Shown: positions 2,383-56,083 of the stretch, piece after piece | Position numbering within the stretch: the first letter of the stretch is position 1 | Layout of the letters: each line of letters begins with the position of its first letter | Assembly: GCA_963707635.1 (NCBI GenBank) | Contig: OY970173.1 | Location: 2,080,001-2,144,000, forward strand | Direction: 5' to 3' | Length of the DNA: 64,000 nt | Origin: Candidatus Latescibacterota bacterium | GTDB lineage: Bacteria > Krumholzibacteriota > Krumholzibacteriia > WVZY01 > JAKEHA01 | The notes under the pieces: model-generated | Database searches by the model: none | Told to the model about the DNA's origin: nothing | The model's input: the letters and a program-made list of their open reading frames with translations, nothing else | Position numbers and translations under genes: made by a program

Positions 2383-3775
2383 CCACCCGCTCCCCCGTCC
2401 CCGGTTCCTGAACAGGACCTTTTTCCGCCGCAAGAAGCTCCAGCAACACCGGTCGCAGATTGTGTAGCGGCGATTCGATGACGTGTTCGAGCAGCCGCTC
2501 GAGCGCGCGTCCAACGGCGGGGCCCGGCCCGATACCCAGCACGCGCATCACGTCCCCGCCGTCGACCTCGAGGTCGGCGACCCGCAGCGCGGCCCGCTCC
2601 CGCCGCTCGTAGGCCACCCGCTTCCGCAGGGCGTCGAGTTGCCCCAGCTCTCCGGCCATCCCGTCGACGTGCAGGCGAGCGCGGCAGTCGGCTTCGCGCA
2701 GCCGGAAAAGATCGTCCAGCAGGTCGGAACCGACCGTGCGCATGAATCGCCTCACCGTGGCCGCGCGCCATTCCGGCGCGTACCGATACATGTGGTGCCG
2801 CACCAGGCGCCGGCAGCAGGCGACGAACGACGTCGGATAGCGTAACCGCCCCAGGACCGCTTCGGTGATGTCGGCACTCACCAGCTCGTGGCCGTAGAAG
2901 ACGACGCGGGACCCGCGCTCGTCGGTGACCGATTGTCGCGCGTCCACCTTGCCGGTGTCGTGCAGGAGCGCCGCCCACCGCACGAGCAGGTTCTCGCGCG
3001 GCGCCGCGTCGCAGGTCTTTAGCGAGTGCCAGTAGACGTCGTCGGGATGATACTCGTTCTGGGTGACGCCCGCACACCGGGCGAGTTCGGGAAGCATCAC
3101 CGCCAGAGCGCCGGTCTGGTAGAGCAGGTGCCACGCGGCGCCGGGACGGTCGCACTGGGTCATGGTCTTGGTGCACTCGTCGCGAATCCGCTCGGCACTG
3201 ACGGTCGCGACGAGGGCGGCCGATTCTCGCATCCGCGCGCGTGTTTCCGCATCCACCTCGAGGTCGAATCGCGCGGTGAAGCGTGCGCCGCGCAGAATTC
3301 GCAGCGGATCCTCCACGAACGCGCGCTCGAAGATGGTGCGCAGCCGGCGGCGCACGAGATCGCCGGCGCCGCCGAAGGGGTCGACCCGATGTCCGTCCGG
3401 GACGCGCTCCGCGATGGCGTTGATGGTGAAGTCCCGGCGGCGAAGATCGTCTTCCACCGGCAGCCGCCAGTCCCACCGCACGTCGAAGTCACGGTGCCCC
3501 GGTCCCGTCGACGTCTCGGTGCGCGGGAAGACTATATCGTAGGTGACGCCGTCGTCCGCCGCCGTGAACTTGTAGACGCCGAACGCCTTGCCGACCAGCG
3601 CCACGGCACCGTGGCGCGCGAGGATGCCTTCCAGCACCTCAGGCGGCAGCCCGCGCACGAGCAGGTCGGTGTCGGGCAGCCCCGACAACCCGAGCAACCG
3701 GTCGCGCACCGCGCCACCCACCCGGTACAGCTCTCCGCGCGCGAGGATTTCGGACTGCCAGGCCGGGAGGTTCAC
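2378..3775 (-). CDS. cca: CCA tRNA nucleotidyltransferase / poly(A) polymerase family with HD domain
   Basis: VGGAVRD, DTDLLV, DLRRRDFTINA, EDPLRILR and LLHDTGK motifs. GTG start overlaps the upstream stop (GTGA). Confidence 0.9.
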   Translation of the reverse strand: MNLPAWQSEILARGELYRVGGAVRDRLLGLSGLPDTDLLVRGLPPEVLEGILARHGAVALVGKAFGVYKFTAADDGVTYDIVFPRTETSTGPGHRDFDVRWDWRLPVEDDLRRRDFTINAIAERVPDGHRVDPFGGAGDLVRRRLRTIFERAFVEDPLRILRGARFTARFDLEVDAETRARMRESAALVATVSAERIRDECTKTMTQCDRPGAAWHLLYQTGALAVMLPELARCAGVTQNEYHPDDVYWHSLKTCDAAPRENLLVRWAALLHDTGKVDARQSVTDERGSRVVFYGHELVSADITEAVLGRLRYPTSFVACCRRLVRHHMYRYAPEWRAATVRRFMRTVGSDLLDDLFRLREADCRARLHVDGMAGELGQLDALRKRVAYERRERAALRVADLEVDGGDVMRVLGIGPGPAVGRALERLLEHVIESPLHNLRPVLLELLAAEKGPVQEPGTGERVE

Positions 3776-4746
3776 GGCTGCCCGTCGCGCGGCCAGCGCA
3801 CCGGGTGGCGCACCCAGAGTGCCAGACCCGCCAGCGCGGTCAGGTATGTACCGATCAGCACGTAGACGATCGAAAACCCGACCGCTTCGGCGCTGCCGAC
3901 GCCGACCACGGAGAAGAAGTAGATGACGGTCGCGTCTCGCGTCCCCAGCCCCGAAATCGAGAACGGGATCAATTCGACCAGTGTGACGATGGGCATCATC
4001 AACACGATGTAGGCCGGTGACACCGGGATCGAGAGGAGAAGCGATACGTAGACCGCCAGCGCAAAGATGAGCGCCCAGCACACGAGCGTCATCGCGGCCA
4101 TCACGGCGATGCGGCGGCGCGACGCGCCATAGACGCGGAGTGCGTCGTAGAAGGAATGAAAGCCGGTCGACCACCGGTCGCGATGGCGGGCCGGTACCAG
4201 AACCGAAAAGGCGGGTTTCAAGAGCGCCCGCATCCACCGCCGGTTGGTGGCCATGACCGCGGCGGCGGCGATGGCGGCCGCCCCGAGCGCGAACAGCGGC
4301 GCCGACGGAATCTGGATGTACCGCTGCGAGAATATCAGGGTGGTCGCGACCCCGCCGACCAGGATGAAGCCGAGGTCCCAGAGGCGGTCGACGAAGACCG
4401 TGAGGAGTGTTTCCCCCAGCGGACGACCGGTGTCCGTGCGGAGATAGAGCGCGCGAAGGGCGTCGCCGGCCTTGCCCGGGGTCACCGACGACGCGAAGAA
4501 GCCGATCATCCACACCGACGTGCTGCGCCGCAGCCCGTATTCCATGCCCAGGGAGCGGATGACGTAGCGCCAGCGCGCCCCGCGCGCGACGGAAATGGCG
4601 GCGATGATGAGCGGCGCCCACAGGAGCTGGACCGGCTCGATCCCGCGCAGGATCCCGATGATCCGGGCGGGGCCGGTGCGCGCGACGATGGCGGCGAATA
4701 TCGCCAGGCCGACGAGCGGCATCAGGATCGCAAGCGCGCGCTTCAT
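3772..4746 (-). CDS. Lysylphosphatidylglycerol synthase TM-domain / flippase-like membrane protein
   Basis: Multi-TM; RWRY, TPGKAGDALRA, DRLWD and PFSISGLGTRD motifs typical of the LPG_synthase_TM family. Confidence 0.8.
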   Translation of the reverse strand: MKRALAILMPLVGLAIFAAIVARTGPARIIGILRGIEPVQLLWAPLIIAAISVARGARWRYVIRSLGMEYGLRRSTSVWMIGFFASSVTPGKAGDALRALYLRTDTGRPLGETLLTVFVDRLWDLGFILVGGVATTLIFSQRYIQIPSAPLFALGAAAIAAAAVMATNRRWMRALLKPAFSVLVPARHRDRWSTGFHSFYDALRVYGASRRRIAVMAAMTLVCWALIFALAVYVSLLLSIPVSPAYIVLMMPIVTLVELIPFSISGLGTRDATVIYFFSVVGVGSAEAVGFSIVYVLIGTYLTALAGLALWVRHPVRWPRDGQP

Positions 4747-4803: not shown

Positions 4804-4832
4804 TTGATTTCGCCGCCCAACCCCCCTATAAT
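4804..4832 (+). promoter_or_regulatory. sigma70 promoter of the sat/cysC operon
   Basis: TTGATT-N17-TATAAT; AGGAG RBS at 4852-4856 before GTG 4864. Confidence 0.7.
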
Positions 4833-4863
4833 ACTCCAATCATAGCCCCTTAGGAGTCCATTT

Positions 4864-5082
4864 GTGAAGCACGACAAGGTCACGATCAAGATCCCCCGGC
4901 CCCTGTACAATCGAGTCCAGCAGCTCATCGACGACTCCGGATTCAATTCTCCGACCGACTTCATTGTATACGTGCTGCGCGACGTGTTGAGCGAGCGAGG
5001 CCTCGACCACGGGGACACGTTCACGCCGGAAGAGCTCGCCGCCATCAAGCAGAAGCTCCGGCGACTCGGATATCTCGACTAG
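4864..5082 (+). CDS. Small ribbon-helix-helix (CopG-like) protein with C-terminal LGY motif
   Basis: KVTIKIPRPLYNRVQQLI...FNSPTDFIVYVLRD RHH pattern; tail EELAAIKQKLRRLGYLD; good RBS. Confidence 0.8.
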   Translation: MKHDKVTIKIPRPLYNRVQQLIDDSGFNSPTDFIVYVLRDVLSERGLDHGDTFTPEELAAIKQKLRRLGYLD

Positions 5083-5106
5083 ACCCTCGGCGAGGAGGAC
5101 GTTCAC

Positions 5107-6267
5107 ATGATTGCACCACATGGCGGGACGCTGGTCTCGCGGATCGTTCCCGCGCGCGAACGAGACCCGCTGCGCGACCACGCCAGCACCCTGCCCGTCA
5201 TCGACCTCAACGCGCGCGAGTCGTCCGACCTGCTCTTGATCGCGATCGGCGGCATGAGTCCACTCGAGGGTTTCATGGGGCGGGCGGACTACGAGCACGT
5301 GCTCACCGACATGCGCCTCGCCTCCGGAATTCCGTGGTCGCTTCCGGTCACACTCTCGGTCGAGTCCGACACGATGCGCGGGCGCCGCACGCCCTTCGTC
5401 GCGTCCCTGCGCACTCCGGAGGGCAAGATCGTGGGCTTGATGACGGTGGACGAGCTCTTCGCCCCCGACAAGACGCGGGAGGCGGAACGAGCGCTGGGCA
5501 CGGCGGACCCCAGGCATCCCGGCGTGCAGTACCTCGACACGACCGGCGACCTGTACGCCGGCGGGAAGGTGTGGCTGCTCGAGCGCGTCAAGGACGGGCC
5601 GTTTGCCGCTCATGAGAGCGACCCGGCCGAGACACGTGCGCTCTTCGCCGAAAAGAAATGGGAGCGGGTGTGCGCGTTCCAGACCCGCAATCCGATCCAT
5701 CGCGCGCACGAGTATCTGATCAAGTGCGCGCTCGAAACCGTGGACGGGTTTCTGATCCACCCGGCGATGGGTGAAACCAAGTCCGACGACGTTCCGGCGG
5801 TGGTGCGGATGGAATGCTATCTCGCGCTGACGCGGAACTACTTCCCCGGTAGCCACGTCGCCCTGACGGTGTTTCCCTACGCGATGCGCTACGCGGGACC
5901 GCGCGAAGCGATCCTGCACGCGATCATTCGCAAGAACTACGGCTGCACGCATTTCATCGTGGGCCGCGACCACGCCGGCGTAGGCAACTATTACGGCACC
6001 TACGACGCCCAGCGCATCTTCGCGCAGTTCACCCCCGACGAGCTTGCGATCACGCCCGTGTTCTTCGAGCACTCGTTCTTCTGCACGCGTTGCGGCGGCA
6101 TGGCGTCGGAGAAGACGTGCCCGCACGGGGCGGAGAGCCGGGTGGCCTTGAGCGGCACCCGGGTGCGCGAGCTGCTCGCGAGCGGCGCGCCGCTGCCGGA
6201 CGAGTTCACCCGGCGCGAAGTGGCCGAGATCCTGCAGCGCCATTACGCCGGCGCGAAGGCGGGCTAG
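5107..6267 (+). CDS. sat: Sulfate adenylyltransferase (ATP sulfurylase)
   Basis: APHGG N-terminus, SPLEGFM, FQTRNPIHRAHE, YAGPREA, GRDHAGVG and Zn site CTRC...CPH. Confidence 0.97.
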   Translation: MIAPHGGTLVSRIVPARERDPLRDHASTLPVIDLNARESSDLLLIAIGGMSPLEGFMGRADYEHVLTDMRLASGIPWSLPVTLSVESDTMRGRRTPFVASLRTPEGKIVGLMTVDELFAPDKTREAERALGTADPRHPGVQYLDTTGDLYAGGKVWLLERVKDGPFAAHESDPAETRALFAEKKWERVCAFQTRNPIHRAHEYLIKCALETVDGFLIHPAMGETKSDDVPAVVRMECYLALTRNYFPGSHVALTVFPYAMRYAGPREAILHAIIRKNYGCTHFIVGRDHAGVGNYYGTYDAQRIFAQFTPDELAITPVFFEHSFFCTRCGGMASEKTCPHGAESRVALSGTRVRELLASGAPLPDEFTRREVAEILQRHYAGAKAG

Positions 6268-6270
6268 CCC

Positions 6271-7650
6271 GTGTCGCGACGCCTGCTCGTCATCGGCCTG
6301 GATTGCGTCACACCTGAATTGTTCTTCGGGCCGTGGTTGGAGGAAATGCCGAACCTGCGCCGGCTGATCCAGAACGGAATCCAGGCGCGTTTGGTCTCGA
6401 CGGTCCCGCCCATCACGGTCCCCGCCTGGATGGCCATGATGACCTCCCACGACCCGGGCATGCTGGGCATTTACGGCTTTCGCAATCGCGCGCGACACGA
6501 CTACGAAGACACCTACACCGTCAACGCCACCCACGTGCAGGCCCGCACGGTGTGGAACATCCTTTCCAGAAACCGGCTGCGATCGATCGTCATGGGAGTT
6601 CCGCTGACGTACCCGCCCAAGCCGCTCAACGGCTTGATGGTCGGGTGTTTCCTGACCCCGGACTCCGCCGCCGAGTTCACCTATCCCCCGGAGCTCAAGC
6701 GGCGGCTCAACACGCTGGCGGGCGGCGAGTACATCATCGACGTGAAGGATTTTCGCAACGAGCGCAAGCAGGAGACACTCGAGCAGATCGAACGCATGAC
6801 CGAACGGCGGTTTCGAGCGTTCCGCGGCCTGCTCGCGGGCGAAGAGTGGGATTTCGCGATGATGGTCGAGATGGGACCGGACCGGCTGCACCACGCTTTC
6901 TGGCGCTACTCCGATTCGGGACACCGGCTGTACGAAAAGGGCAACCCGTTCGAGGACGTCATCCACCGGTACTACCTCGAGATGGACGCCGAAATCGGCC
7001 GCACCGTCGACGCGGTGCCCGCGGACACATCGGTGATCGTCGTTTCGGACCACGGCGCCCGGCGCATGGCCGGCGCGATCTGCGTCAACGAGTTCCTGAT
7101 TCGCGAGGGCTACCTGACGCTCAAGTCGTACCCGGACCACCCGACGCGGCTCACCCCGGATCTGGTGGACTGGGATCGTACGTTGGCGTGGGGCGACGGC
7201 GGTTACTACGCGCGCGTGTTTCTCAACGTGGCCGGGCGCGAGCCCCGCGGGCAGGTGGCCCCCGACGACGCCGCGCGCGTCGGCCGCGAACTCGCGGCCA
7301 AGCTGGAGGCGCTCGGCGACGAGAACGGGCGCCCGATCGGGACGCGCGTATTCTTTCCCGGGGAGATCTATCGCGAAACGCGTGGGGTGCCGCCCGACCT
7401 GATCGTGTATCTTGGCGACCTCGAGTGGCGCAGCGCCGGAACCGTCGGACACGGCCGCGTGCACGTCTTCGAGAACGACACCGGGCCGGACGACGCGAAC
7501 CACGCCCAGGAAGGCGTCTTCGTGTGGGCGAACCGGGGCAAGGCGCCCGCGGGTCCGGTCGCGCGGGTGTCGATCTACGACGTGGCGCCCTCGATACTCG
7601 ACTACTTTTCGATACCGGCTCCGCCGGAGATGATCGGGCACGTGATTTAG
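6271..7650 (+). CDS. Alkaline phosphatase superfamily (nucleotide pyrophosphatase/phosphodiesterase-like) protein 1, cytoplasmic
   Basis: IGLD, STVPPITVPAW (Thr nucleophile position), DRLHH, SDHG and DDANH; no signal peptide. Confidence 0.88.
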   Translation: MSRRLLVIGLDCVTPELFFGPWLEEMPNLRRLIQNGIQARLVSTVPPITVPAWMAMMTSHDPGMLGIYGFRNRARHDYEDTYTVNATHVQARTVWNILSRNRLRSIVMGVPLTYPPKPLNGLMVGCFLTPDSAAEFTYPPELKRRLNTLAGGEYIIDVKDFRNERKQETLEQIERMTERRFRAFRGLLAGEEWDFAMMVEMGPDRLHHAFWRYSDSGHRLYEKGNPFEDVIHRYYLEMDAEIGRTVDAVPADTSVIVVSDHGARRMAGAICVNEFLIREGYLTLKSYPDHPTRLTPDLVDWDRTLAWGDGGYYARVFLNVAGREPRGQVAPDDAARVGRELAAKLEALGDENGRPIGTRVFFPGEIYRETRGVPPDLIVYLGDLEWRSAGTVGHGRVHVFENDTGPDDANHAQEGVFVWANRGKAPAGPVARVSIYDVAPSILDYFSIPAPPEMIGHVI

Positions 7651-7725
7651 CGCAACGTGCTGCGGGCGAGCCGAACGGCGGCCACCCCGCGTCGTGCCAA
7701 ACCGTAATGCTTCAACGGAGGATCT

Positions 7726-8325
7726 ATGAAAGGCTTCACGCTGTGGTTCACCGGGCTACCCTCGTCGGGCAAGTCGACGCTGGCTCGTCGCGTGGAGGAG
7801 ATCCTCCTCGAGCGCGGGATGAACGTCGAGGTCCTGGACGGGGATGAAGTCCGCGAAAACTTGAGCAAGGGGCTCGGGTTCTCGAAGGAGGACCGCGACA
7901 CCAACATCCGGCGCATTGGCTTCGTCGCCAAGCTGCTCGCGCGCAACGGCGTGGTCGCCATCACGGCGGCGATTTCGCCCTACCGCGACGTGCGCGATGA
8001 AATGCGGCGCGCGATCGGACGCTTCGTCGAGGTGTACGTCGAGTGCCCCATCGACGTGCTCAAGGAACGAGACGTCAAGGGCCTGTACAAGAAGGCGCTG
8101 GCCGGCGAGATCAAGCATTTCACCGGCGTGGACGATCCCTACGAGCCGCCGCTCAAACCCGAAGTGGTCGTGCACAGCGACCGCGAGGGCGTGGACGAGA
8201 GCGTGGCCCGGATCGTGGGAACGCTCGAAGTGCTCGGGTACATCCCGCGGGCGTCCGGGGGCGACTTCTCCGCCGCCGAAGAGGAAACCATCAAACGCCG
8301 GCTTAAGGATCTCGGCTACATCTGA
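7726..8325 (+). CDS. cysC: Adenylyl-sulfate (APS) kinase with C-terminal LGY extension
   Basis: [39 protein letters not shown] and FTGVDDPYE; tail [15 protein letters not shown]. Confidence 0.96.
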
Positions 8326-8330
8326 CCCCC

Positions 8331-9657
8331 ATGCTCAAGTGGTTTCAGCAACCGGCGGAGCGGGCCTGCGTCGTCGGACTCGACGGCGTTCCCTGCTCGA
8401 TGATCCGGCGCTTCACGCAATCCGGCGTCATGCCCCGCATGGCGGAAATCGTGGCCCGGGGCGCCCTGCGCGAAACCACCGTGTCGCTGCCCGAGATCTC
8501 TTCCGTCAGCTGGTCGTCGTTCATGACCGGCAAGAACCCGGGTGAGCACGGCATCTTCGGATTCACCGATTTGCACCCGGGGACCTACACGCAGAGCTTC
8601 CCGAGTTTTCGCGACCTCAAGTGCGACACCATCTGGGACCGCCTCGGCGAGCGCAAGATGCGCAGCGTCGTGATCAACCAGCCCGCGACCTATCCGGCGC
8701 GGCCGATCCACGGCGTGCTGGTGTCGGGCTTCGTCGCGGTTCACCTCGACCGCTCCGTGTTTCCCGCGCGCTATCTGCGCCTGCTGCGCGACATCAACTA
8801 CGAGATCGACCTCGACGCAGAGGTCGTGCGCGACAACCCGACGGCCCTGTTCCGCAAGCTGCACGAGTTGCTCATCGCGCGCGAGCGGTTGCTGGACGCG
8901 CTGTGGACGGAAGAGAAATGGAACCTGATGCAGGTGGTGGTCACCGGAACCGACCGCCTGCACCACTTCCTCTTCGACGCATACGACGACGCGGCCCACC
9001 CGGAGCACCAGGGTTTTCTCGACTACTATCGAGCGGTGGACGCGTTCGTCGGGCGCGTTTACGACCGCTTTGCCGCCTCCGGCGACGGGCGAAACTTCTT
9101 CGTCCTTTCCGACCACGGGTTTTGCCGCACGAGCCACGAGGTGAACGTCAACGCCGTCCTGGAGCAGAACGGGCTGCTCGCCTTCGCGACGGCCGACGCG
9201 ACCGGGCTGGACGGAATCTCCGAGCGCGCGGCGGCGTTCGCGCTGGACCCCGCGCGCCTCTATGTCCACCGCCGCGGCCGCTTCCCCCGCGGTGGGGTGG
9301 CCGAGGATCGCGTCGAGGGCGTCCTCGACGAGCTCACGGCCCTGTTCACGTCGCTGCGCGCACGAGGGAGAGCCGGTCGTGCGCCGGATCTTTCGCGGGC
9401 GCGATGTGTACCATGGCAGTGAAGCGGCCCGCGGTCCGGACCTGTTGCTCGTTCCCGTCAACGGGTTCGACCTGAAGGGGCGCGTGCGCGCGCGCGAGGT
9501 GGTGGCTCCCCGCCGTCTCCAGGGCATGCACACCTGGGACGACGCGTTCGTGGCCACGCTGCGCACGGACCTCGTCCCCCAGGGCCGCGAGCTGACGCTG
9601 CTGGACGTGCCGCGGATGATTCTCAAGAGCCTCCATGTCGAACCGATGGATTCGTAG
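8331..9657 (+). CDS. AlkP/NPP-like protein 2, cytoplasmic; single frameshift near 9360 (sequencing error or pseudogene)
   Basis: GLDGVP, VSLPEISSVSW, DRLHH and SDHG in frame 8331. The family-like C-terminus (EPVVRRIFRGRDVYHG..GPDLL..QGMHTWDDAF) continues in ORF 9262..9657. Confidence 0.82.
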
Positions 9658-11689
9658 CATCGCCGTCGTGACGCTGGCGCTGTGGCCGACCGCGGCGTTC
9701 GCCTACATCGGGCCCGGCGCCGGCTTCGCGCTGGTGTCGTCGTTCGTGACGCTGGTGGTGGCGTTCGGGGCCGCGTTCTTTGCGGTGTTCGCGCTGCCGG
9801 TGCGCGTGCTCGTGCGGCAGTGGAAGCGGCGCCGCTCACTCCGGCACGCGCGCGTGAAGAAGGTGATCGTGCTCGGCCTGGACGGGCTCGACCCCGACAT
9901 CTGCGAGGCACTGTTCGCGCGCGGGGACCTTCCCCACCTGCGCAAACTCCGCGACGAAGGGACCTACCGCCGGCTGGGCACGTCGATGCCCGCCCTCTCG
10001 CCGGTCGCGTGGTCGACCTTCGCCACCGGCGCCGACCCGTCGCGACACGGAATATTCGACTTCGTGGCGCGCGATCCCCGCACCTACGCCCCGCACCTTT
10101 CGTCGAGCGAAGTGTACGGACGCACCCGTTTCATCGGCGTCGGACGGCTCCGGTTCCCGGTTTCGAGCGGCGGCGTGCGCGGATTCCGGCGCAGCCGGAC
10201 GTTCTGGCGGGTGCTTTCCGACCACGGCGTGGCCTCCTCCGTCCTGCGGGTTCCGATCACATTTCCGGTCGAGAAGATCGACGGTGTGATGATCGCCGGC
10301 ATGTGCGTGCCGGATCTGCGCGGCACCCAGGGATCGTTCACGTTCATCACCAGCGACTCCGAGTCGCCCCCGCGCGGCGGGGTCGTGATCGACGTGCCCG
10401 CGTCGGGAGGTGCCGTCGTCATCCCCGGCCCCGCGAGCCCGATCGACGGCAAGCCGATTTCGGTGCGTGTCGAGATCCGTCGCACACGCGACGCCGGCCA
10501 CGAGCTCGTCGTGGGGCGGGAGCGCGTGGCGCTGCGCGAGCGGGAATACACGCCCTGGGTGAGACTCGCCTTTCGCGCCGCGCGCGGGCTGACCGCCAGC
10601 GGCATCGCGCGCTTCTATCCCGTGCGCCTGGCCGACGGCCTCGCCATCTACGTGACGCCGATTCACGTCGACCCGGAGCACCCGGCGATTCCGATCTCGC
10701 ATCCGTCGGTGTTTTCAGTCTACCTGGCGAAGCTCATGGGGCCGTTCGGGACCCTCGGGCTGGCGGAGGACACCAGCGCGCTCAACGACGGAGCCATCGA
10801 CGAGCAGGCCTTTCTCGACCAGGCCTACGACCTGCACGCGGAGCGACGCGCCATGTGGGAGCACGCGCTGGCGCGGCTGCGCGGCGGCCTGGCGGTGTGC
10901 GTGTTCGATATCAGCGATCGCCTCCAGCACATGTTCTTTCGCTATCGCGACCCGGCCCATCCAGCCAACGCGGGCCGCGACGTGACGCGCCACGCGGACG
11001 CGATTCACGAGATGTACCGGCGCATGGACACCCTGGTCGGTGAGACGATCGCGCGGGTGGATCGCCACACGGCGCTGTTCGTGATGTCGGACCACGGCTT
11101 CAAGCAGTTCCGCCGCGGCGTCAACCTCAACGGGTGGCTCGCGCGCGCCGGGCTGCTCGCGGTCAAGGAAGGCGCCGGACCCGGCGAGTACCTGAGCGCA
11201 ATCGACTGGAGCCGGACCCGGGCGTACGCGCTGGGGTTGAGCGGCATCTACCTGAACCTGCGCGGCCGCGAGCGGGACGGCATCGTAGACGCCGCCGACG
11301 CGGACGGCCTGAAGCAAACTATCATTCGCGGGCTCACCGCGCTGCGCGATGGCGACGGTCCCGTCATCCGCCGGGTCGTCGACGTGGCGCGCGACCTCGA
11401 CGGTCCCTATCGCGATGGCGGGCCCGACCTGCTGCCGGGCTACGAGGACGGTTACCGCGTGTCGTGGGACTGCGCCAAGGGATCGGTGCGCGACGAGTTG
11501 TTCGAAGACAACACGAAGTGCTGGAGCGGCGATCATTGCGTGGACTCCGACATCGTCCCCGGCGTCCTGTTCACGAACGTCGCGCTGGACGAGGGGCCGA
11601 TCGGGCTGGAAGACGTCGGCCCGACCATTCTGGATCTCTTCGGCGTGCCGGTTCCTTCCTATATGACCGGACGGAGCCGGGCGAAATGA
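9635..11689 (+). CDS. AlkP/NPP-like protein 3 with signal peptide, YIGPG motif and TM anchor
   Basis: N-terminus ...TAAFA-YIGPGAG, then a hydrophobic helix and RQWKRRR; followed by GLDGLD, TSMPALSPVAW, DRLQH, SDHG and SGDH. Confidence 0.87.
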   Translation: MSNRWIRSIAVVTLALWPTAAFAYIGPGAGFALVSSFVTLVVAFGAAFFAVFALPVRVLVRQWKRRRSLRHARVKKVIVLGLDGLDPDICEALFARGDLPHLRKLRDEGTYRRLGTSMPALSPVAWSTFATGADPSRHGIFDFVARDPRTYAPHLSSSEVYGRTRFIGVGRLRFPVSSGGVRGFRRSRTFWRVLSDHGVASSVLRVPITFPVEKIDGVMIAGMCVPDLRGTQGSFTFITSDSESPPRGGVVIDVPASGGAVVIPGPASPIDGKPISVRVEIRRTRDAGHELVVGRERVALREREYTPWVRLAFRAARGLTASGIARFYPVRLADGLAIYVTPIHVDPEHPAIPISHPSVFSVYLAKLMGPFGTLGLAEDTSALNDGAIDEQAFLDQAYDLHAERRAMWEHALARLRGGLAVCVFDISDRLQHMFFRYRDPAHPANAGRDVTRHADAIHEMYRRMDTLVGETIARVDRHTALFVMSDHGFKQFRRGVNLNGWLARAGLLAVKEGAGPGEYLSAIDWSRTRAYALGLSGIYLNLRGRERDGIVDAADADGLKQTIIRGLTALRDGDGPVIRRVVDVARDLDGPYRDGGPDLLPGYEDGYRVSWDCAKGSVRDELFEDNTKCWSGDHCVDSDIVPGVLFTNVALDEGPIGLEDVGPTILDLFGVPVPSYMTGRSRAK

Positions 11690-13626
11690 AGGGTCTCATC
11701 GGCGCGCTGCTGGTCGCGATGCTGGCGACGCCGGCCGCCGCGGCCGGCGAGCATCCCTCGGTGGTCGTGCTCGGCATCGACGGCATGGACCCCGATCTGC
11801 TGACAAGATTCATGTCCGAAGGGCGCATGCCGAATTTTTCCGCGTTGATCGCGGAGGGATCGTTCACGCGACTGGAGACGTCGATTCCCCCGCAGAGCCC
11901 GGTCGCGTGGTCGAACTTCATCACCGGCATGGACCCGGGCGGCCACGGCATCTTCGACTTCATCCACCGCGACCCCGCCACTTATACCCCGGTGTTTTCC
12001 GCCGCCGACATCGAGGAGCCGTCGAAGACTCTCTCACTCGGCGACTGGCTGCTCCCCTTGTCGGGGGGCGGCACGGTGCTGCTGCGCAAGGGCGAGGCGT
12101 TCTGGCAGGTGCTGGACCGCGCGGGAATTCCGTGCACGGTAATCCGCGTGCCGGCCAACTATCCACCTGCGAAGACGTCGGCGCGCACGCTCTCGGGGAT
12201 GGGCACACCGGACCTGCTCGGGAGCTACGGCACCTTTACGCTCTACACCGACGACGACATATGGCGCGGCGCCCACGTGAGCGGCGGGCGCGTGGTGATG
12301 GTCGACCGGGTGGACGACCGGGCGCGAATTCAGATCGAGGGGCCGAAGAACTCGTTGCGCAAGAGCCAGCCGACGCTGGCGCGGGAAGCCGTGGTCGACG
12401 TCGACCCCGAGCACGATGCGGCCCGGATCGCGGTCGGTGGCGAGGAGATCGTGCTCCACGCCGCAGAGTGGAGCGGCTGGGTCCCCATCGACTTCGACGT
12501 GCTCGGGCCGGTGAAGAAGCTCCGCGGCATGTGTCGATTCTATTTGAAGAGCGTGCGCCCGTCACTCCAGCTCTACGTGTCGCCTCTGAACCTAGACCCG
12601 CTGCACCCGGCGCTTCCCATCTCCACACCCGAAGACTATTGCGCCGACCTGGCGCGGCGGGTCGGGCGCTACTACACGCAGGGGATCGCGGAAGACACCA
12701 AGGCGCTCGAAGCGGGCGCGCTGAACGACGCGGAGTTCGTGGAGCTGACCGATACGCTGCTCTCGGAGCGCGAGCGCATGCTCGACGCGGTCCTCTCGGA
12801 TTATCGCGACGGCTTCTTGTTCTTCTACGTGTCGACCATCGACCAGTCGTGCCACGCCCTGTGGCGCAATGCGGACGCGGCGCACCCCGCCCACCCGGCG
12901 GACGGCGCGTTCGCGGACCGCTTCGCGACCCTCTACGCAGAAATGGATCGCGTGCTGGGAACGATTCGCGCGCGTATTCCCCGCGACGCCACCATGATCG
13001 TCATGTCCGACCACGGCTTTGCGCCCTACTACCAGAAGGTGCACTTGAACACCTGGCTGTACCGCAACGGGTACCTCGCCCTCGTGCGTGCGGACGAACC
13101 CGGGGGCCCGCTGTTCGGCAACGTGTTTTGGCGCCGCACGCGGGCCTACGCGGCGGGCCTCAACGGGCTCTACCTGAACGTGGCCGGCCGGGAGGCGCGC
13201 GGGATCGTCGCGCGCGGCGCGGAATACGACGATCTCCTGGCCGAGATCGCGACGAAGCTGCTCGAGTTTCGCGACCCCGAAAACGGCGAACGGGTGGTGA
13301 CGACCGTCTATCGGGCCCGCGACGTCTACCACGGATCGGAGGTGGGTGCGGCTCCCGACCTGATCGTGGGGTACAATCGTGGGTACCGGTCGAGCGACGA
13401 TTCGGCGCTGGGGACGGTCACCTCGGAGCTGCTGACCCCCAACCTCGGCAAATGGACCGGCGACCATTGCATGGACCATCACCTCGTGCCCGGAATCCTG
13501 GTGTGCAACCGGCCGCTGCGCGCGGGCGACCCGCGGCTGATCGACCTGCCCGTCACGATCCTGGCGCTGTTCGGCGTGGACGCGCCGGCCGCGATGACGG
13601 GCCGGGCGCTGATCGACACCCCCTGA
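11686..13626 (+). CDS. AlkP/NPP-like protein 4, exported (Sec signal peptide)
   Basis: ATGA overlap with the previous gene; MKGLIGALLVAMLATPAAAA signal; GIDGMD, TSIPPQSPVAW, DQSCH, SDHG and TGDH; paralog of protein 3. Confidence 0.87.
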   Translation: MKGLIGALLVAMLATPAAAAGEHPSVVVLGIDGMDPDLLTRFMSEGRMPNFSALIAEGSFTRLETSIPPQSPVAWSNFITGMDPGGHGIFDFIHRDPATYTPVFSAADIEEPSKTLSLGDWLLPLSGGGTVLLRKGEAFWQVLDRAGIPCTVIRVPANYPPAKTSARTLSGMGTPDLLGSYGTFTLYTDDDIWRGAHVSGGRVVMVDRVDDRARIQIEGPKNSLRKSQPTLAREAVVDVDPEHDAARIAVGGEEIVLHAAEWSGWVPIDFDVLGPVKKLRGMCRFYLKSVRPSLQLYVSPLNLDPLHPALPISTPEDYCADLARRVGRYYTQGIAEDTKALEAGALNDAEFVELTDTLLSERERMLDAVLSDYRDGFLFFYVSTIDQSCHALWRNADAAHPAHPADGAFADRFATLYAEMDRVLGTIRARIPRDATMIVMSDHGFAPYYQKVHLNTWLYRNGYLALVRADEPGGPLFGNVFWRRTRAYAAGLNGLYLNVAGREARGIVARGAEYDDLLAEIATKLLEFRDPENGERVVTTVYRARDVYHGSEVGAAPDLIVGYNRGYRSSDDSALGTVTSELLTPNLGKWTGDHCMDHHLVPGILVCNRPLRAGDPRLIDLPVTILALFGVDAPAAMTGRALIDTP

Positions 13627-13646
13627 CGGAATCAAAGGAGACACCC

Positions 13647-13838
13647 ATGTTCGGAAAGAATCGAGTTACCCTCGAAAAGGATCTGTTCGAGCGCGTGCGC
13701 GCGGCCTCGGAGAAGGCAGGGTACGCGTCGGCCGACGAGTTCGTCGCCCACGTGCTCGAACGCGAGCTCGCGAAAACGGAAGCGGGGTCGAGCGGCGACG
13801 TGAAGAAGCAGCTCGAGGGCCTCGGCTACATTTCCTGA
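13647..13838 (+). CDS. Second small RHH-like protein with C-terminal LGY motif
   Basis: AAGGAG RBS; MFGKNRVTLEKDLFERVRAASEKAGYASADEFVAHVLERE...DVKKQLEGLGYIS, resembling the 4864 protein. Confidence 0.8.
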   Translation: MFGKNRVTLEKDLFERVRAASEKAGYASADEFVAHVLERELAKTEAGSSGDVKKQLEGLGYIS

Positions 13839-13839
13839 C

Positions 13840-14661
13840 GTGTTCCTGCTCGCGCGCATCGTGACCCTCGTCTTCGACGCGCTGGTGGCGCCGTTCGGCT
13901 CCCATCGGCTCGCCGCGCTGCTGGCGGTTTCCCTGCTGGGCGGGGCAATGCTCGCGCTGGTTTTTCGCGCGACCTCGAAGCAGGCCGCCATCGGCCGTTC
14001 GCGCGAGCGGTTCAAGGCGCGGATACTCGAGATGCGTCTCTACCCGGACGACATCGTCCTGATCACGCGCGCGTTCGGGGGCGCACTCGCCGCGCAGGGT
14101 GCGTATCTCAAGTACGCCGCGCCCGGGATCCTGGCAGCGGTCGTGCTCGCCGCCCCGCTGTTCGTACAACTCGAGCAGCGCTTCGCCTCCCGCGCGCTCC
14201 CGCCCGGGAGCCGCACGCTGGTCACGGCGACGCTGGCGGAGGGCACCGACCCGCGCGCGGTCGTCACCTCGCTTTCCGGACCCGCCGGGACCGAGGTGGA
14301 CGCACGCTCGCTGCGCGCGAGGGCATCGCGCGACGTCGTGTGGGTCGTGGATGTCCGGGAGCGCGGCCGCCACGAGATGGAGCTCACGCTGGGAGCGCAG
14401 GCGTATCGATTCCCCATCGAGGCGAAGGAATCGTGCCGCGCGATCGGTCGACGACGAAGCGCGGGTTCCTGGGTCGACGCGGGGACGCAGGTCGGGCTGC
14501 CCGGGATCGCGGCGGGGGGCCCCATAGCAGGGGTTCGCATCCATTACCCGGCCGCGCACTATCGACTGCTGGGGATCGGGATGAACTGGCTGGCTGTATT
14601 CCTGATCGGGACTCTGGTGGGCGCGGTCCTGCCGGCGCGGCTGTTGAGAATCCACCTCTAG
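13840..14661 (+). CDS. Membrane protein, DUF106/EMC3/TMCO1-like topology with soluble insertion
   Basis: TM, basic helical segment (KQAAIGRSRERFKARILEMRL), TM, beta-rich insertion, then C-terminal TM WLAVFLIGTL..ARLL. Family assignment by eye only. Confidence 0.6.
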   Translation: MFLLARIVTLVFDALVAPFGSHRLAALLAVSLLGGAMLALVFRATSKQAAIGRSRERFKARILEMRLYPDDIVLITRAFGGALAAQGAYLKYAAPGILAAVVLAAPLFVQLEQRFASRALPPGSRTLVTATLAEGTDPRAVVTSLSGPAGTEVDARSLRARASRDVVWVVDVRERGRHEMELTLGAQAYRFPIEAKESCRAIGRRRSAGSWVDAGTQVGLPGIAAGGPIAGVRIHYPAAHYRLLGIGMNWLAVFLIGTLVGAVLPARLLRIHL

Positions 14662-14678: not shown

Positions 14679-14771
14679 TGGTGCCGGAGGCCGGAGTCGA
14701 ACCGGCACGGGGCTTTCAAAGGCCCCAGCGGATTTTAAGTCCGCTGCGTCTACCAATTCCGCCACTCCGGC
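14679..14771 (-). tRNA. tRNA-Leu (TAA)
   Basis: GCCGGAGTGGCGGAATTGGTAGACGCAGCGGAC-TTAAAA-TCCGCT, long variable arm, GGTTCGACTCC, encoded CCA. Confidence 0.96.
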
Positions 14772-52266: not shown

Positions 52267-53796
52267 CTACCTGGGAGCCCCCAGCAGGCGCGCGAGACGC
52301 CCCGCCATGGGGACCGGAATGGAGGCGACGACGTCGAGCTCCTCGGGGGTGAACAGACGCGCGGCGCGGTACGCCGCCGCCACCGCCACCACCGCCGCCG
52401 CGGTCGCGGCGGCCAGCCCCACGCTTCCCTCCACGCGCCACAGCACGGGCACCGCCACGAGAACCGCCGCCGAGGCGAGAAAGCAGCGGCCGATGAAACG
52501 AAACGGAATCGAAATCTCCGGCACGAAACGCCGAACGGCGATGAAATACGCGATGGGCTGCGCGGCGATCGCGATCGCCACCGGAATCATCGCTCCCGGC
52601 ACGCCGTACTTCGGTATCAACACCAGATCCAGACCTATATTGATGATGGCGAGGAACAGGTAGATTAGCAGATTGACGTGGGTTTTTTCCAGAACGTAGA
52701 GCGCCATCGACAGGGGGGTGGACACGAAAGACACCGTGAAGATGGCGAAGAACAACTGCGTCGGGAGCGCGGCAGCGCGCATGCCGTCGCCGAACATATC
52801 CACCACCACCCGCCCGCCCAGCACGATGCCTCCCGCGCACAGCGGCGCGCACAGCAGGAACAACAGCCGATAGTAGCGCTCGACCACGCCGCGCAGGCGG
52901 GCGGGATCGCGCGAATACGCTTCCGACATCCCGGCCATCACCAGCGGCCACACCGTGCCCGGAACGAATTCGAGGATGGTCTGCGGCAGCCGGTACGCGA
53001 GGTCGAAGAACCCCGCCTCCGCCGCGGTTCGAAAGTGCCCCAGTAACAACGTCTCCGACTGGCGCCACACCACCAGGTTCAGCACGCCGATGGCGGCGAA
53101 CGGGAGCGAGTACTTCCAGAGCCGCGCGCGTGTGACCTCCGCTTCCGTGTCGCGCGCGGGAAATGCCGTCGCGCTGCCGAGCCGGCCGACGATCATGGCG
53201 CACGCCACCGCGTTTCCGAGCGCGCCGGCGGCGAGTACCCCGACGACTCCCCACCCCATCGGAATCGCGACCGCGACGGCGGCGGTGTAGACGACGTGGC
53301 TGGCCAGCGCGGCCGCGCTCAGGCGCGCGGTGTCGTAGCTCGAGTTGAGCACGTGGGCGGCGACGGTGAAGAGGATTTCGAACAGGGCGAGGGCCACGGC
53401 GGCCGCGACGTACACCCCGACGCCGTCGCCGTGGAATACGCGCTCGGCCGCGCCCCGGAAGACGAAGGCGCCCGCGGCCAGCCCCAACCAGGTGAGCGCG
53501 TGGATGGCGACGACGCGCCGCACGAGCCGCCGGGCGGCAACCGCCGACCCGCTCACCCGCAGCACCGGGAGGAACTTCAGCAGCGCCTGGCCCGTGCCCA
53601 GCCCGGCGAAGAGGACCGCGAACATCAGGATCGAGCGCACGACGCTGAGCACGCCGTAGTCGTGGTCGCCGAGCCCGCGAACCACGATCACGCTGCTCGC
53701 GAATCCCAGCACGAAACGGGCCGCGCGCGACGCGACCGTCCACGCCATCGCCCGGCCGATGCGCTGGGTGGTGCCCCCTGCTTCAGCGTGACTCAT
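52267..53796 (-). CDS. wzx: Wzx-type oligosaccharide flippase
   Basis: Many TMs; RGLGDHDYG, LWKYSLP, AGFFDLA and LIPKYG. Confidence 0.85.
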   Translation of the reverse strand: MSHAEAGGTTQRIGRAMAWTVASRAARFVLGFASSVIVVRGLGDHDYGVLSVVRSILMFAVLFAGLGTGQALLKFLPVLRVSGSAVAARRLVRRVVAIHALTWLGLAAGAFVFRGAAERVFHGDGVGVYVAAAVALALFEILFTVAAHVLNSSYDTARLSAAALASHVVYTAAVAVAIPMGWGVVGVLAAGALGNAVACAMIVGRLGSATAFPARDTEAEVTRARLWKYSLPFAAIGVLNLVVWRQSETLLLGHFRTAAEAGFFDLAYRLPQTILEFVPGTVWPLVMAGMSEAYSRDPARLRGVVERYYRLLFLLCAPLCAGGIVLGGRVVVDMFGDGMRAAALPTQLFFAIFTVSFVSTPLSMALYVLEKTHVNLLIYLFLAIINIGLDLVLIPKYGVPGAMIPVAIAIAAQPIAYFIAVRRFVPEISIPFRFIGRCFLASAAVLVAVPVLWRVEGSVGLAAATAAAVVAVAAAYRAARLFTPEELDVVASIPVPMAGRLARLLGAPR

Positions 53797-54907
53797 CCAG
53801 CACCCGTTGCAAGTACGCCTTGAAGCCGAGGATCGACGCCGGCACCGTGTTCGACGCGGTCGACATGAAGCACCCGCGCGAATACCGGTCCTCGGGGTGG
53901 TAGCCGTGCATGGCCGCGATGGGTCGCGCCCCCATGAAGCTGGGCACGATCAGCACGCCCGCGTCGGCGAGGAAGATGCTGCGGCCGTACTCGCGCTCGG
54001 GAAACAGGCAGCCGAGCGACGCGAGCTCGGAGTCGTCCAGGCGCCGCCCGAGCCCGCCGAAGGCCTCGGCCACCGCCCCATCCACGTCGGCATCGCCCCA
54101 CACCCGCGCCATGGTCGAGTCGAAAAACGCGAGGTAGTCGCGCCCCAGTGCCAGCCCACGACGCGTGAGTGTGCCCCAGACGTCGACGGTGCGCGTAACC
54201 GCCGTCATGCCGTGGTCGCTCAAGAGCACAATCGAAAGCTCTACGTCGCGCGCGCGCGCCTGCGCCCGCGCGTCCGCCAGGAAGCCCTCGTAACGGGCCA
54301 GCTTCGCCCGCACTGCCTCGTGAACGATGCCGACGCGATGCATGAGCGCGTCCAGCTCCGCCGTGTAGACGAACAGGACCTCGGCGTCGCCGCCCAGCGC
54401 CGCGACCGCGTCGCGGAAGTTGTCCTCCTCGGGCGTCCGGTAGTACCACGCCCGATAGTGAATGCCCCGCGCGCGCATCCAGTCGAACACGGACTCGCAC
54501 CCGAGCCCCCCGGGCTCGAACGGGTCGGTACGCTGCGCGACGTCGAAGCGATGCAGCAGGTGCACGGGTATGTCATAGAGATCGTAGTACGATCGCACGC
54601 CCCCGCGCCGGTCGACCCAGCGGCGCACCCAGCGGCGCGCGCGCCAATCGACGGCGTGCGGCAGGCGCGGCACCCCGCGCAGGAACGCGAAGGTACCGCC
54701 CGCGCGGGCAGCGCGAAACATGGAAAACACGCCGTGCTCGCGCGGCTCCGCCCCGGTAAGCAGACTCGGAATGGCGGTGGAGCTGTACCCGAGCACGGTA
54801 CCGAGCGACGAGCGCCGCGCGAAGGTGCGGTTCCCGAAGCCGTAGTACTCCGCGATCTCCCAACCGAGCGCGTCCACCAGAAATACCAACGTCACGCGGC
54901 GCGCCAT
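53783..54907 (-). CDS. AlkP/NPP-like protein in the polysaccharide locus
   Basis: LVDALG, LGYSSTAIPSLLTG, LDALMH, SDHG and AMHGY; no signal peptide. Confidence 0.85.
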   Translation of the reverse strand: MARRVTLVFLVDALGWEIAEYYGFGNRTFARRSSLGTVLGYSSTAIPSLLTGAEPREHGVFSMFRAARAGGTFAFLRGVPRLPHAVDWRARRWVRRWVDRRGGVRSYYDLYDIPVHLLHRFDVAQRTDPFEPGGLGCESVFDWMRARGIHYRAWYYRTPEEDNFRDAVAALGGDAEVLFVYTAELDALMHRVGIVHEAVRAKLARYEGFLADARAQARARDVELSIVLLSDHGMTAVTRTVDVWGTLTRRGLALGRDYLAFFDSTMARVWGDADVDGAVAEAFGGLGRRLDDSELASLGCLFPEREYGRSIFLADAGVLIVPSFMGARPIAAMHGYHPEDRYSRGCFMSTASNTVPASILGFKAYLQRVLDESR

Positions 54908-54918
54908 CCCGGACTCCC

Positions 54919-56064: not shown

Positions 56065-56083
56065 GGCGCAAGTACCGCCGGGG

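Follow-up and report, generated by a model that had tools for sequence, protein, structure and literature searches.

The window, the whole stretch of 64,000 nucleotides that was analysed, carries on its forward strand a run of genes in the order RHH1-sat-AlkP1-cysC-AlkP2-AlkP3-AlkP4-RHH2-membrane protein (Table 1). The gaps between them are, in order, 24, 3, 75, 5, −23, −4, 20 and 1 nt, bearing out the gene order and tight packing described in the initial annotation, and the promoter that it had placed ahead of RHH1 is present as a σ70-like candidate. When 10 upstream regions were aligned, TTG...TATAATACT, which includes the −10 box TATAATACT, was identical in all 10; the bases directly past that box are also conserved, with no clear operator visible by eye. 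Terminator signals number 6, against 5.0 in shuffles, hence none above background. A gene like that of the divergent flippase-like protein is found in 10 of 80 AlkP1 loci.

Table 1. Features of the operon and its upstream flank (positions in the window)
Feature	Position	Strand	Description
Flippase-like membrane protein	3772-4746	−	PF03706; divergent; associated in near relatives only
Candidate promoter	4804-4832	+	σ70 type, TTGATT-17-TATAAT
RHH1	4864-5082	+	CopG/RHH-like, 72 aa, C-terminal LGY tail
sat	5107-6267	+	Sat, ATP sulfurylase
AlkP1	6271-7650	+	NPP/PhnA-clade enzyme, predicted cytoplasmic
cysC	7726-8325	+	CysC, APS kinase; appended LGY tail (last ~22 aa)
AlkP2	8331-9657	+	AlkP1 paralogue, predicted cytoplasmic; frameshifted near 9356
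AlkP3	9635-11689	+	Signal peptide-like start, YIGPGAG, one TM segment, Ser122
YIGPGAG motif in AlkP3	9704-9724	+	Tyr24, predicted first mature residue, outer face
AlkP4	11686-13626	+	AlkP3 paralogue, predicted exported, Ser71
RHH2	13647-13838	+	RHH-like microprotein, 63 aa, LGY tail; linked to AlkP3/4
Membrane protein	13840-14661	+	Likely Oxa1/EMC3/TMCO1(DUF106)-like fold with inserted beta domain

PAPS synthesis genes and four AlkP-fold enzymes

By curated models, Sat (NF003166 at 514 bits against a cut-off of 387, and TIGR00339) and CysC (TIGR00455 and NF002059, both over cut-off) belong to families whose known function is the synthesis of PAPS. In the genome, a single contig that is 96% complete, no match was found to PF01507 (PAPS/APS reductase) or PF01077 (sulfite reductase), profiles that, as controls, matched in all 14 and in 11 of 14 genomes respectively, nor to PF00685, PF14269 or PF05935, and there is no cysD. 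The reductase and sulfite reductase of assimilatory sulfate reduction are thus both lacking genome-wide, extending what had been noted for the window. Since PF01507 occurs in just 1 of 22 genomes of family f1, to which this genome belongs, and in 1 of 12 of family f2, PAPS is not made for assimilation. The claim that a P-loop sulfotransferase is absent does not hold beyond the window: one PF13469 protein is encoded at C1:1882027, ~200 kb from the operon, and 21 of the 22 f1 genomes have one. A classical enzyme that could use PAPS, which the initial annotation had named as grounds for giving up its proposal, therefore exists in the genome, and its proposal is weakened to that extent.

All four AlkP proteins pass Pfam PF01663 and none passes PF00884. 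The nucleophile motifs PPITVPAW, PEISSVSW, PALSPVAW and PPQSPVAW occur as originally read, together with metal-ligand motifs, and the sulfatase C/S-x-P-x-R motif is found in none, so that by motif and profile they are not formylglycine sulfatases. With members of the NPP/PhnA clade (Xac NPP, ENPP1/3/6, phosphonoacetate hydrolase) they share the AlkP fold, the two-metal ligands and the Ser/Thr nucleophile, save that the last His of AlkP2 is out of frame. They differ from that clade in their low similarity (at most 16% identity, with TM 0.55-0.60, for a model of AlkP1 at pLDDT 88.9 compared with PhnA and Xac NPP by Foldseek), in their linkage to PAPS genes and in the motif GI[FY][GD]F after the nucleophile. 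Here AlkP1-4 all carry Phe at the position that aligns with what we take to be the phosphoryl-binding Asn of the Xac NPP motif. In AlkP1 the nucleophile Thr49 and the ligands D11, D204, H208, D260, H261 and H411 are invariant in the homologue alignment, and a search of solved structures with AlkP1 gave a weak arylsulfatase match and no close relative.

NPP-like bimetal sites attack phosphorus, and PAPS would then be cleaved at P and not at S, which speaks against a relay of sulfate. The enzymes might accordingly move AMP, pAMP or phosphate from APS/PAPS to the tails or the envelope, for signalling or phospho-decoration. Their complete NPP-type two-metal sites with Ser/Thr nucleophiles fit this alternative, Tyr is a known adenylylation acceptor, and dependence on Sat and CysC would give the same genomic profiles. 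Given that tailed haloarchaeal AlkP proteins deliver sulfate to glycans, not AMP, and that Phe replaces the phosphoryl-binding Asn, we regard it as improbable.

AlkP2 (nucleophile Ser57; profile match to AlkP1 at E 3.5e-53) has its motif intact but not its reading frame, and so is not the metal-ligand-complete enzyme first described: a frameshift near 9356 leaves an ORF of 363 aa with the last ligand His in another frame, whereas the gene is intact in relatives, at about 440 aa. At 9356 one base is missing in the ~97%-identical contig of a relative, which stems from a separate run and is not this strain. In this strain the enzyme may lack activity. AlkP3 begins with a signal-peptide-like start followed by YIGPGAG, a hydrophobic segment at 38-56 and 10 K/R in residues 56-76. 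Its description as membrane-anchored stands, with the catalytic side corrected by prediction: by the positive-inside rule, applied to the K/R-rich stretch, the catalytic domain is probably cytoplasmic, and Tyr24 is predicted to start the mature protein on the outer face. Of 31 AlkP3 frames, 30 contain this Tyr and the remaining one has the motif in a neighbouring frame, whereas it occurs in 0 of 30 AlkP4 proteins. AlkP4, 38% identical to AlkP3, does have an N-terminal hydrophobic stretch, read by eye as the signal noted before, and its export is predicted. The operon would therefore place little-studied phosphatase-fold enzymes on both sides of the membrane.

Co-conservation of the AlkP subfamilies with sat and cysC

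The suggested co-conservation of sat and cysC with these AlkP subfamilies is strongly borne out by neighbourhood and genome counts, which resolve two modules, sat-AlkP1-cysC and AlkP3-AlkP4-RHH2-Oxa1-like protein, the latter tracking cysC. Of 80 AlkP1 loci, 66 have enough flank to judge; 25 of these carry sat immediately before AlkP1, 33 carry cysC immediately after it, and 24 carry both. The arrangement sat-AlkP1-cysC recurs in at least 6 phylum labels (Krumholzibacteriia, Armatimonadota, Terriglobia, Planctomycetota, Chloroflexota, Actinomycetota); Sat is fused to AlkP1 in L036 and P0180 and a Sat-AlkP1-CysC fusion occurs once (P0153). Cultured carriers of an AlkP1 gene include Thermotoga sp. 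KOL6, Thermosipho ferrireducens and Marinitoga, and in JGI naming the family goes under predicted AlkP superfamily phosphohydrolase/phosphomutase. Across 201 genomes of the phylum, which are related and hence give counts that are not independent, AlkP3/4 and cysC occur together in 118, AlkP3/4 without cysC in 11 and cysC without AlkP3/4 in 14, while 58 have neither; cysC thus accompanies AlkP3/4 in 118 of 129 genomes. A fixed four-gene unit is not seen, since the genomes of family f6 have AlkP1/2 in 0 of 87 and keep AlkP3/4 in 82 of 87. Any loading step by AlkP1/2 is therefore not obligatory. We also rejected the idea that AlkP1 is required wherever Sat is used (47 of the 87 f6 genomes have Sat and 0 have AlkP1). 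Replacement of AlkP1 by a P-loop sulfotransferase in f6 was unsupported beside cysC (0 of 18 loci, 4 of which have RHH1-LGY adjacent), and beside sat the few sulfotransferase-like genes nearby are inconsistently arranged.

The main competing account is one of housekeeping, in which AlkP1, as a pyrophosphatase, pulls the Sat reaction forward, AlkP2-4 dispose of PAP, of APS/PAPS or of further nucleotides, and the P-loop enzyme encoded elsewhere does the sulfation. It draws on the NPP/PhnA fold, on the Sat-AlkP1 fusions, on the genome having a membrane H+-PPase and no family I PPase, and on the PF13469 genes of this genome and its family. It also has a biochemical precedent. In the Thermococcales cluster copG-sat-pApase-NPP-cysC, described for Pyrococcus yayanosii PYCH_17520-17560 and Thermococcus onnurineus TON_1704-1707 (PMC8268124, PMC4463584), TON_1705 holds the position of AlkP1, after an RHH gene and sat and just before cysC. 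TON_1705 hydrolyses PPi with a kcat of 2.1 /s, a Km of 18.8 µM and a kcat/Km of 1.1e5 (PMC9653972 Table 1), and the same activity has been proposed for PYCH_17550. The RHH regulator, Sat and an NPP-family enzyme directly before cysC are common to that cluster and our operon, and P. yayanosii likewise has no identified reductase or sulfotransferase route. In the passages on that cluster the NPP enzyme is taken for a PPase and the tail goes unmentioned; orthology is by position only. Unlike the archaeal cluster, the operon has no DHH pApase and adds three more AlkPs, RHH2 and the Oxa1-like protein. No protein named as Thermococcales was among the AlkP1 matches listed (120 in each of two homologue listings), and the plasmid matches are haloarchaeal and only distantly paralogous (25-31% identity), their glycan loci lacking sat and cysC.

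Several observations make the housekeeping account somewhat unlikely. TON_1705 is, by the published values, ~250-fold less efficient than Ton1914 of the same organism (1.1e5 vs 2.7e7), exported AlkP4 cannot serve a cytoplasmic Sat, and two DHH-family proteins of the genome could already clear PAP. PF13469 matches, which in 89 of the 129 AlkP3/4 genomes do offer a P-loop enzyme that could use the PAPS, are absent from 34 of 118 genomes with AlkP3/4 and cysC and from 7 of 35 with AlkP1 and cysC. Moreover, AlkP1 often parts from Sat to join tailed AlkPs. At 32 AlkP1 loci neither sat nor cysC is a neighbour (cysC is elsewhere in 30 of these genomes and Sat in 28), and at 25 of them AlkP1 or a neighbour bears the LGY tail. 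Several sit amid glycosyltransferase and flippase genes, company that speaks against a pure PPase role.

The LGY tail and the membrane protein

The tail, ~22 residues of consensus EEE-I-x-x-RL-x-x-LGY at protein C-termini, is borne by CysC, RHH1, RHH2, exported Thr-type sulfatase-fold proteins and the haloarchaeal sulfotransferases Agl30 and Agl31; elsewhere it is found on AlkP1, on DUF2061 or alone as proteins of 31-55 aa, some possibly fragments. Here AlkP1-4 have no tail in cis, and among the AlkP1 homologues listed it occurs as a fusion in 27 of 120 in one listing and 0 of 120 in another. In this genome the pattern gives 6 C-terminal matches, all on CysC, RHH or AlkP-fold proteins, where 20 shuffles average 0.45. 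The 7 PF00884 proteins of the genome include two of the Thr type, both tailed; the 4 Cys-type proteins and the seventh lack the tail, as do 4 of 4 Cys-type sulfatases in other loci. No relative of the tail profile was found among solved structures at E<0.03.

When the search pattern leaves the Tyr position free, 129 of 129 tails still have Tyr there (some counted twice or from close kin), whereas the matching place in the last helix of CysC itself has Tyr in just 12 of 18. Under the housekeeping account the tail would be a docking or regulatory helix gathering CysC, RHH and the AlkPs; such a helix could tolerate Phe, yet 0 of 129 tails have it. In RHH1, L-x-x-LGYL is invariant in 19 sequences, which were picked for bearing the tail. 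RHH1 and RHH2 are RHH-like in sequence (Atlas 0.92-0.95), RHH1 clusters being named putative CopG regulator at 0.95 and RHH2 having a weak NikR match.

For the membrane protein (model at pLDDT 90.6), Pfam gave no match and Foldseek nothing at E<=0.001. The best VIA match is 7tut_8, from the multipass translocon (Z 10.6, rmsd 3.9, 136 aligned), which stands 2.7 over the next row but below the value of ~13 recommended for helical proteins; YidC (3wo7_A) reaches Z 7.2. One of 33 homologues is named DUF106, and the Atlas lead is at 0.84 with PF01956 on 17% of members. Taken with the model, this makes an Oxa1/EMC3/TMCO1(DUF106)-like fold with an inserted beta domain likely.

A possible sulfate relay to the envelope

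In haloarchaea, glycan sulfation is lost when the AlkP-superfamily proteins Agl30 and Agl31 are deleted (PMC11980604), and Agl7 is likewise needed for it (PMC3892788). As AlkP-superfamily proteins are genetically required there, a non-canonical role of AlkP1-4 in envelope sulfation is plausible. Agl30 and Agl31, one membrane-bound and one soluble, both end in LGY: the primer ends for Agl30, Agl31 and VNG1063H translate to HLEDLGYL, LEELGYT and KELGYIE (PMC11980604 Table 1). Halobacterium salinarum, which has Agl30 and Agl31, is already amenable to gene deletion and glycan MS. Unlike AlkP1-4, Agl30 and Agl31 are sulfatase-like rather than NPP-like, they keep function with C-terminal tags, and the paper nowhere mentions PAPS and describes no membrane-crossing module. 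The initial proposal that sulfate is taken from APS/PAPS and relayed to the envelope thus has PAPS linkage and the haloarchaeal precedent in its favour, and the Thermococcus PPase and the P-loop enzyme against it. On balance we lean slightly towards envelope sulfation by the AlkP-fold enzymes; that it works through a sulfo-tyrosine relay is a more tentative suggestion, which we hold to be less likely than not.

In such a relay, the four two-metal Ser/Thr AlkPs would move a sulfuryl group through covalent enzyme adducts to envelope glycans, with Sat and CysC supplying PAPS. AlkP1 and AlkP2 would load its sulfate onto the tail Tyr of CysC, RHH1 or RHH2, and AlkP1 may instead, or in addition, remove PPi. 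More speculatively, cytoplasm-facing AlkP3 could take sulfate from PAPS or RHH2 and pass it to Tyr24, while a repurposed Oxa1-like protein would offer a groove across the membrane. AlkP4, outside, would hand the sulfate to exported lipoproteins of the Thr-type AlkP kind, whose genes lie elsewhere; their tails would receive it, and they may act like Agl30/Agl31. ASST, a beta-propeller enzyme with a His nucleophile, performs periplasmic envelope sulfation by ping-pong transfer from an aryl-sulfate donor. A sulfo-Tyr is also an aryl sulfate; this genome, however, has no ASST match anywhere, and we rejected that route. DltX is a Tyr-peptide acyl shuttle. A precedent for a relay across the envelope is given by PatA/PatB and OatA, in which a short terminal peptide, C-terminal in PatA/PatB, uses an invariant Tyr to carry a group from a donor in the cytoplasm to a transferase outside (PMC12148441). 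Those shuttles differ in their acyl cargo and in their MBOAT/AT3 and SGNH enzymes, and are analogous, not homologous, to the tails.

Peptide carriers might be dispensed with altogether if each AlkP, on the side of the membrane where it sits, sulfated a small lipid or aromatic carrier or a lipid-linked glycan. The flippase-like and Oxa1-like proteins would then move the product or insert AlkP3, and the tail would serve as a cis lid or docking element. The presence of the PF03706 gene agrees with this, as do Agl30 and Agl31, whose substrates are dolichol-linked glycans and each of which worked by itself in Haloferax, and an Oxa1 fold would fit insertion of the N-out helix of AlkP3. We nonetheless hold this version to be quite unlikely, as it gives no account of the tail moving among CysC, AlkP1, RHH, DUF2061 and the 31-55-aa proteins and leaves the invariant outer Tyr of AlkP3 unexplained.

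Open-access literature searches returned no description of the operon, the four-gene module or the tail. To our knowledge, the way in which prokaryotes bring sulfate beyond the cytoplasm and the donor of the AlkP-fold archaeal sulfotransferases are open questions. The operon offers a compact, testable parts list of four nucleophile residues, two invariant Tyr motifs and an insertase-like protein, and the LGY tail a simple rule by which many 'sulfatase-like' and 'phosphodiesterase' genes can be re-annotated as candidate sulfotransferases. If true, the relay would supply the missing donor mechanism for Agl30/Agl31, and the numerous tailed 'sulfatase-like' proteins of archaea and many bacterial phyla would be envelope sulfotransferases fed by it.

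Operon layout and active sites

The nine genes lie on the + strand in the order initially annotated (RHH1-sat-AlkP1-cysC-AlkP2-AlkP3-AlkP4-RHH2-membrane protein), with intergenic gaps of at most 75 nt, and are headed, as claimed, by a σ70-like promoter whose −10 box does not vary across 10 of 10 aligned upstream regions. Sat and CysC score above curated model cut-offs, and GC content in the operon region is no different from that of its flanks.

All four AlkP proteins exceed the PF01663 threshold and none that of PF00884. The annotated Ser/Thr nucleophiles are present (Thr49, Ser57, Ser122 and Ser71 in AlkP1 to AlkP4), accompanied in every case by G[LI]D, D-x-x-x-H, SDHG and late His motifs, which we take to correspond to the NPP two-zinc site. 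The four active sites look intact, but AlkP2 is broken in the present assembly: its frame shifts near 9356, so that the last metal-ligand His falls in a different frame. Since a ~97%-identical contig from another run has one base fewer at this site and relatives' AlkP2 genes are intact, the frameshift reflects either a misassembly or a lesion of this strain. The predicted AlkP1 structure (pLDDT 88.9) is nearest to phosphonoacetate hydrolase and Xanthomonas NPP (TM 0.55-0.60, identity ≤16%); no close relative was found among solved structures. The names of homologues indicate Krumholzibacteriota. The AlkP3 N-terminus carries a signal-like stretch, YIGPGAG and a single hydrophobic segment followed by 10 K/R, which would give an N-out helix after cleavage and place the catalytic domain, by prediction, in the cytoplasm. 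The YIGPGAG Tyr is present in 30 of 31 AlkP3 frames, the remaining one being frameshifted and having the motif next to it; none of 30 AlkP4 has this Tyr.

Locations of the operon promoter and of related or neighbouring features (C1, contig of the genome under study; L numbers, loci compared)
Feature	Location	Strand	Context
σ70-like promoter	window 4804-4832		heads operon
tRNA-Leu(TAA)	window 14679-14771	-	immediately behind operon, tail to tail
Further PF01663 protein	window 53783-56083	-	without LGY tail
Fifth AlkP1-like gene	C1:982812-984428 (L167)		tail-less; first in polysaccharide cluster (GT4, sugar dehydratases, flippase, PF00953)
Tandem near-identical AlkP-TPR genes	C1:2930597-2935131 (L166)		beside GT2 and RmlD genes
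Thr-type tailed sulfatase-fold gene and neighbour	L165:6051-9289		inside fatty-acid oxidation operon
PHP-domain gene	L069:12001-12888		one of 13 loci
Tailed DUF2061 membrane microprotein	L011:13333-13686; L013:13360-13716		right after AlkP2, Armatimonadota-type loci

Linkage to PAPS supply

AlkP1 neighbourhoods were mapped for the best 80 of 590 loci in GTDB, 66 of them with sufficient flank. Within these 66, sat is immediately upstream in 25 and cysC immediately downstream in 33, 24 loci having both, and the neighbourhoods span at least six phylum labels. Sat and AlkP1 are fused in L036 and in protein P0180, and P0153 unites Sat, AlkP1 and CysC. Where neither gene flanks AlkP1 (32 loci), the genomes nonetheless hold cysC (30/32) and Sat (28/32); AlkP1 or a neighbour bears the LGY tail in 25 of these 32 by our own count, and several lie amid glycosyltransferase and flippase genes (68 selected proteins scanned). 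A PHP-domain gene, a candidate PAP phosphatase, recurs in 13 loci, mostly in Actinomycetota and mostly just 3' of cysC. In the 201-genome phylum set, AlkP1 (36 genomes) and AlkP2 (37) occur only in families f1 and f2 and in three genomes of f5, and 35 of the 36 AlkP1-bearing genomes have cysC.

The operon's core has already been published, and read differently, as the archaeal cluster copG-sat-pApase-NPP-cysC; in the portion of that account available, the NPP gene is speculated to degrade PPi and P. yayanosii is given no identified sulfotransferase (PMC8268124). TON_1705, the Thermococcus gene at the position of AlkP1, is described in the available portions of two reports as a pyrophosphatase, with kcat/Km of 1.1e5 versus 2.7e7 for Ton1914 (PMC9653972, PMC4463584). 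A reading of the AlkPs as housekeeping hydrolases seems unlikely, though deserving weight; its best case is AlkP1, in view of TON_1705 and because no family I PPase was found in the genome under study, and its weakest is AlkP4, which is exported.

The proposed co-conservation with PAPS genes is borne out for AlkP3/4, found in 129 of the 201 genomes: 118 have both AlkP3/4 and cysC, 11 AlkP3/4 alone, 14 cysC alone and 58 neither, these related genomes not being independent. Family f6 has AlkP3/4 in 82 of 87 genomes, and AlkP1 or AlkP2 in none. Twenty f6 loci were fetched and 17 inspected in full; AlkP3-AlkP4-RHH2 is contiguous in all 17, the membrane gene is called in 12, a tailed NPP-like protein stands behind it in 4, and sat and cysC were not found near AlkP3/4. 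The model of the membrane protein (pLDDT 90.6) best matches the multipass-translocon chain 7tut_8 (Z 10.6), presumably TMCO1, and weakly YidC (Z 7.2); the annotated DUF106 likeness is therefore likely, though unproven.

The LGY tail

The tail ([YFL][ST]xEEExxIxxRLxxLGY[LI]) terminates six proteins of the genome, against 0.45 expected: CysC, RHH1, RHH2 and three proteins of AlkP fold, whose signals look lipoprotein-like on inspection by eye. Two AlkP-TPR proteins have an internal LGY motif between their AlkP and TPR parts. Both Thr-type sulfatase-fold proteins are tailed; Cys-type sulfatases are tail-less here (4/4) and in other loci (4/4). Two of the tail-bearing AlkP loci have in their vicinity a GT2/RmlD pair or a flippase-like gene, and one is within a fatty-acid oxidation region (L165). 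There, the tailed gene's neighbour reproduces, at its called start, the N-terminal ~35 residues of the thiolase encoded downstream, which suggests insertion with duplication.

Carriers vary among CysC, AlkP1, RHH and DUF2061. AlkP1 is tailed in 27 of 120 homologues listed in one search and 0 of 120 in another, and in four genomes of Chthonomonadales the tail is on AlkP1 and CysC lacks it. In two Thermodesulfobacteriota loci (L045, L048) RHH1 has no tail; L048 has it on AlkP1 instead. A tail profile gave 757 matches at E≤0.001 among 1.84 billion proteins. Of the best 150, 143 terminate in LGY and 72 have CysC, AlkP or RHH bodies, a survey that is partly circular because the profile was built from such proteins; the other 78, mostly short, have no body class and include five unrelated repeat proteins. 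Pfam assignments for 63 of the 150 comprised APS kinase (9), PF01663 (3), RHH (1), a weak YajR match (1), the five repeat proteins and 44 without family. Six proteins of 43-44 aa (P0285, P0288, P0289, P0291, P0313, P0320) consist of a low-complexity linker and the tail alone, and could be fragments of genes or else free-standing carrier peptides.

With a Tyr-blind pattern, run on proteins that had been identified from their bodies, Tyr occupies the tail position in 129 of 129 tails, a count that includes four ambiguous CysC ends and some tails twice. The equivalent position in CysC's own last helix is Tyr in 12 of 18.

Sulfate routes and a possible relay

The initial annotation called for a genome-wide search for sulfotransferases and cysH. 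The latter was not found, nor were matches to cysD, sulfite reductase or ASST; one PF13469 sulfotransferase was found, its gene standing behind methyltransferase and GNAT genes. In f7 loci L122 and L123, a Sat-CysC fusion is convergent with a gene matching PF13469; their genomes contain a single AlkP3/4-type gene, which is more distantly related.

The system combines PAPS enzymes, no reductive route, AlkP genes tightly linked to those for PAPS supply, and a pair of invariant tyrosines. We lean slightly towards AlkP-based envelope sulfation. Halobacterium Agl30 and Agl31, AlkP-superfamily proteins required for glycan sulfation, provide a genetic precedent for AlkP-fold glycan sulfotransferases; their C-termini, translated from the published primers, are LGY, and the available part of that account discusses neither donor nor motif (PMC11980604). 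A part for Agl7 in sulfation of dolichol-linked hexose is described in the accessible text of PMC3892788. In such sulfation the group moved would be sulfuryl, not phosphoryl; adenylyl or phospho transfer by the AlkPs we judge improbable. Direct transfer via a lipid carrier appears just as improbable.

A tyrosine relay, to which we give about half the credence of envelope sulfation itself, would have Tyr as sulfate carrier, cross the membrane via the groove of the Oxa1-like protein and end with tailed lipoproteins as final transferases. The PatA to PatB acetyl shuttle, as partially available to us, runs via a C-terminal Tyr peptide (PMC12148441). No description of the operon, of its AlkP3-AlkP4-RHH2-membrane protein module or of the LGY tail was found in the open-access papers searched. 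The operon system is real, widespread and largely unstudied and, if true, a tyrosine relay across a membrane would be categorically new.
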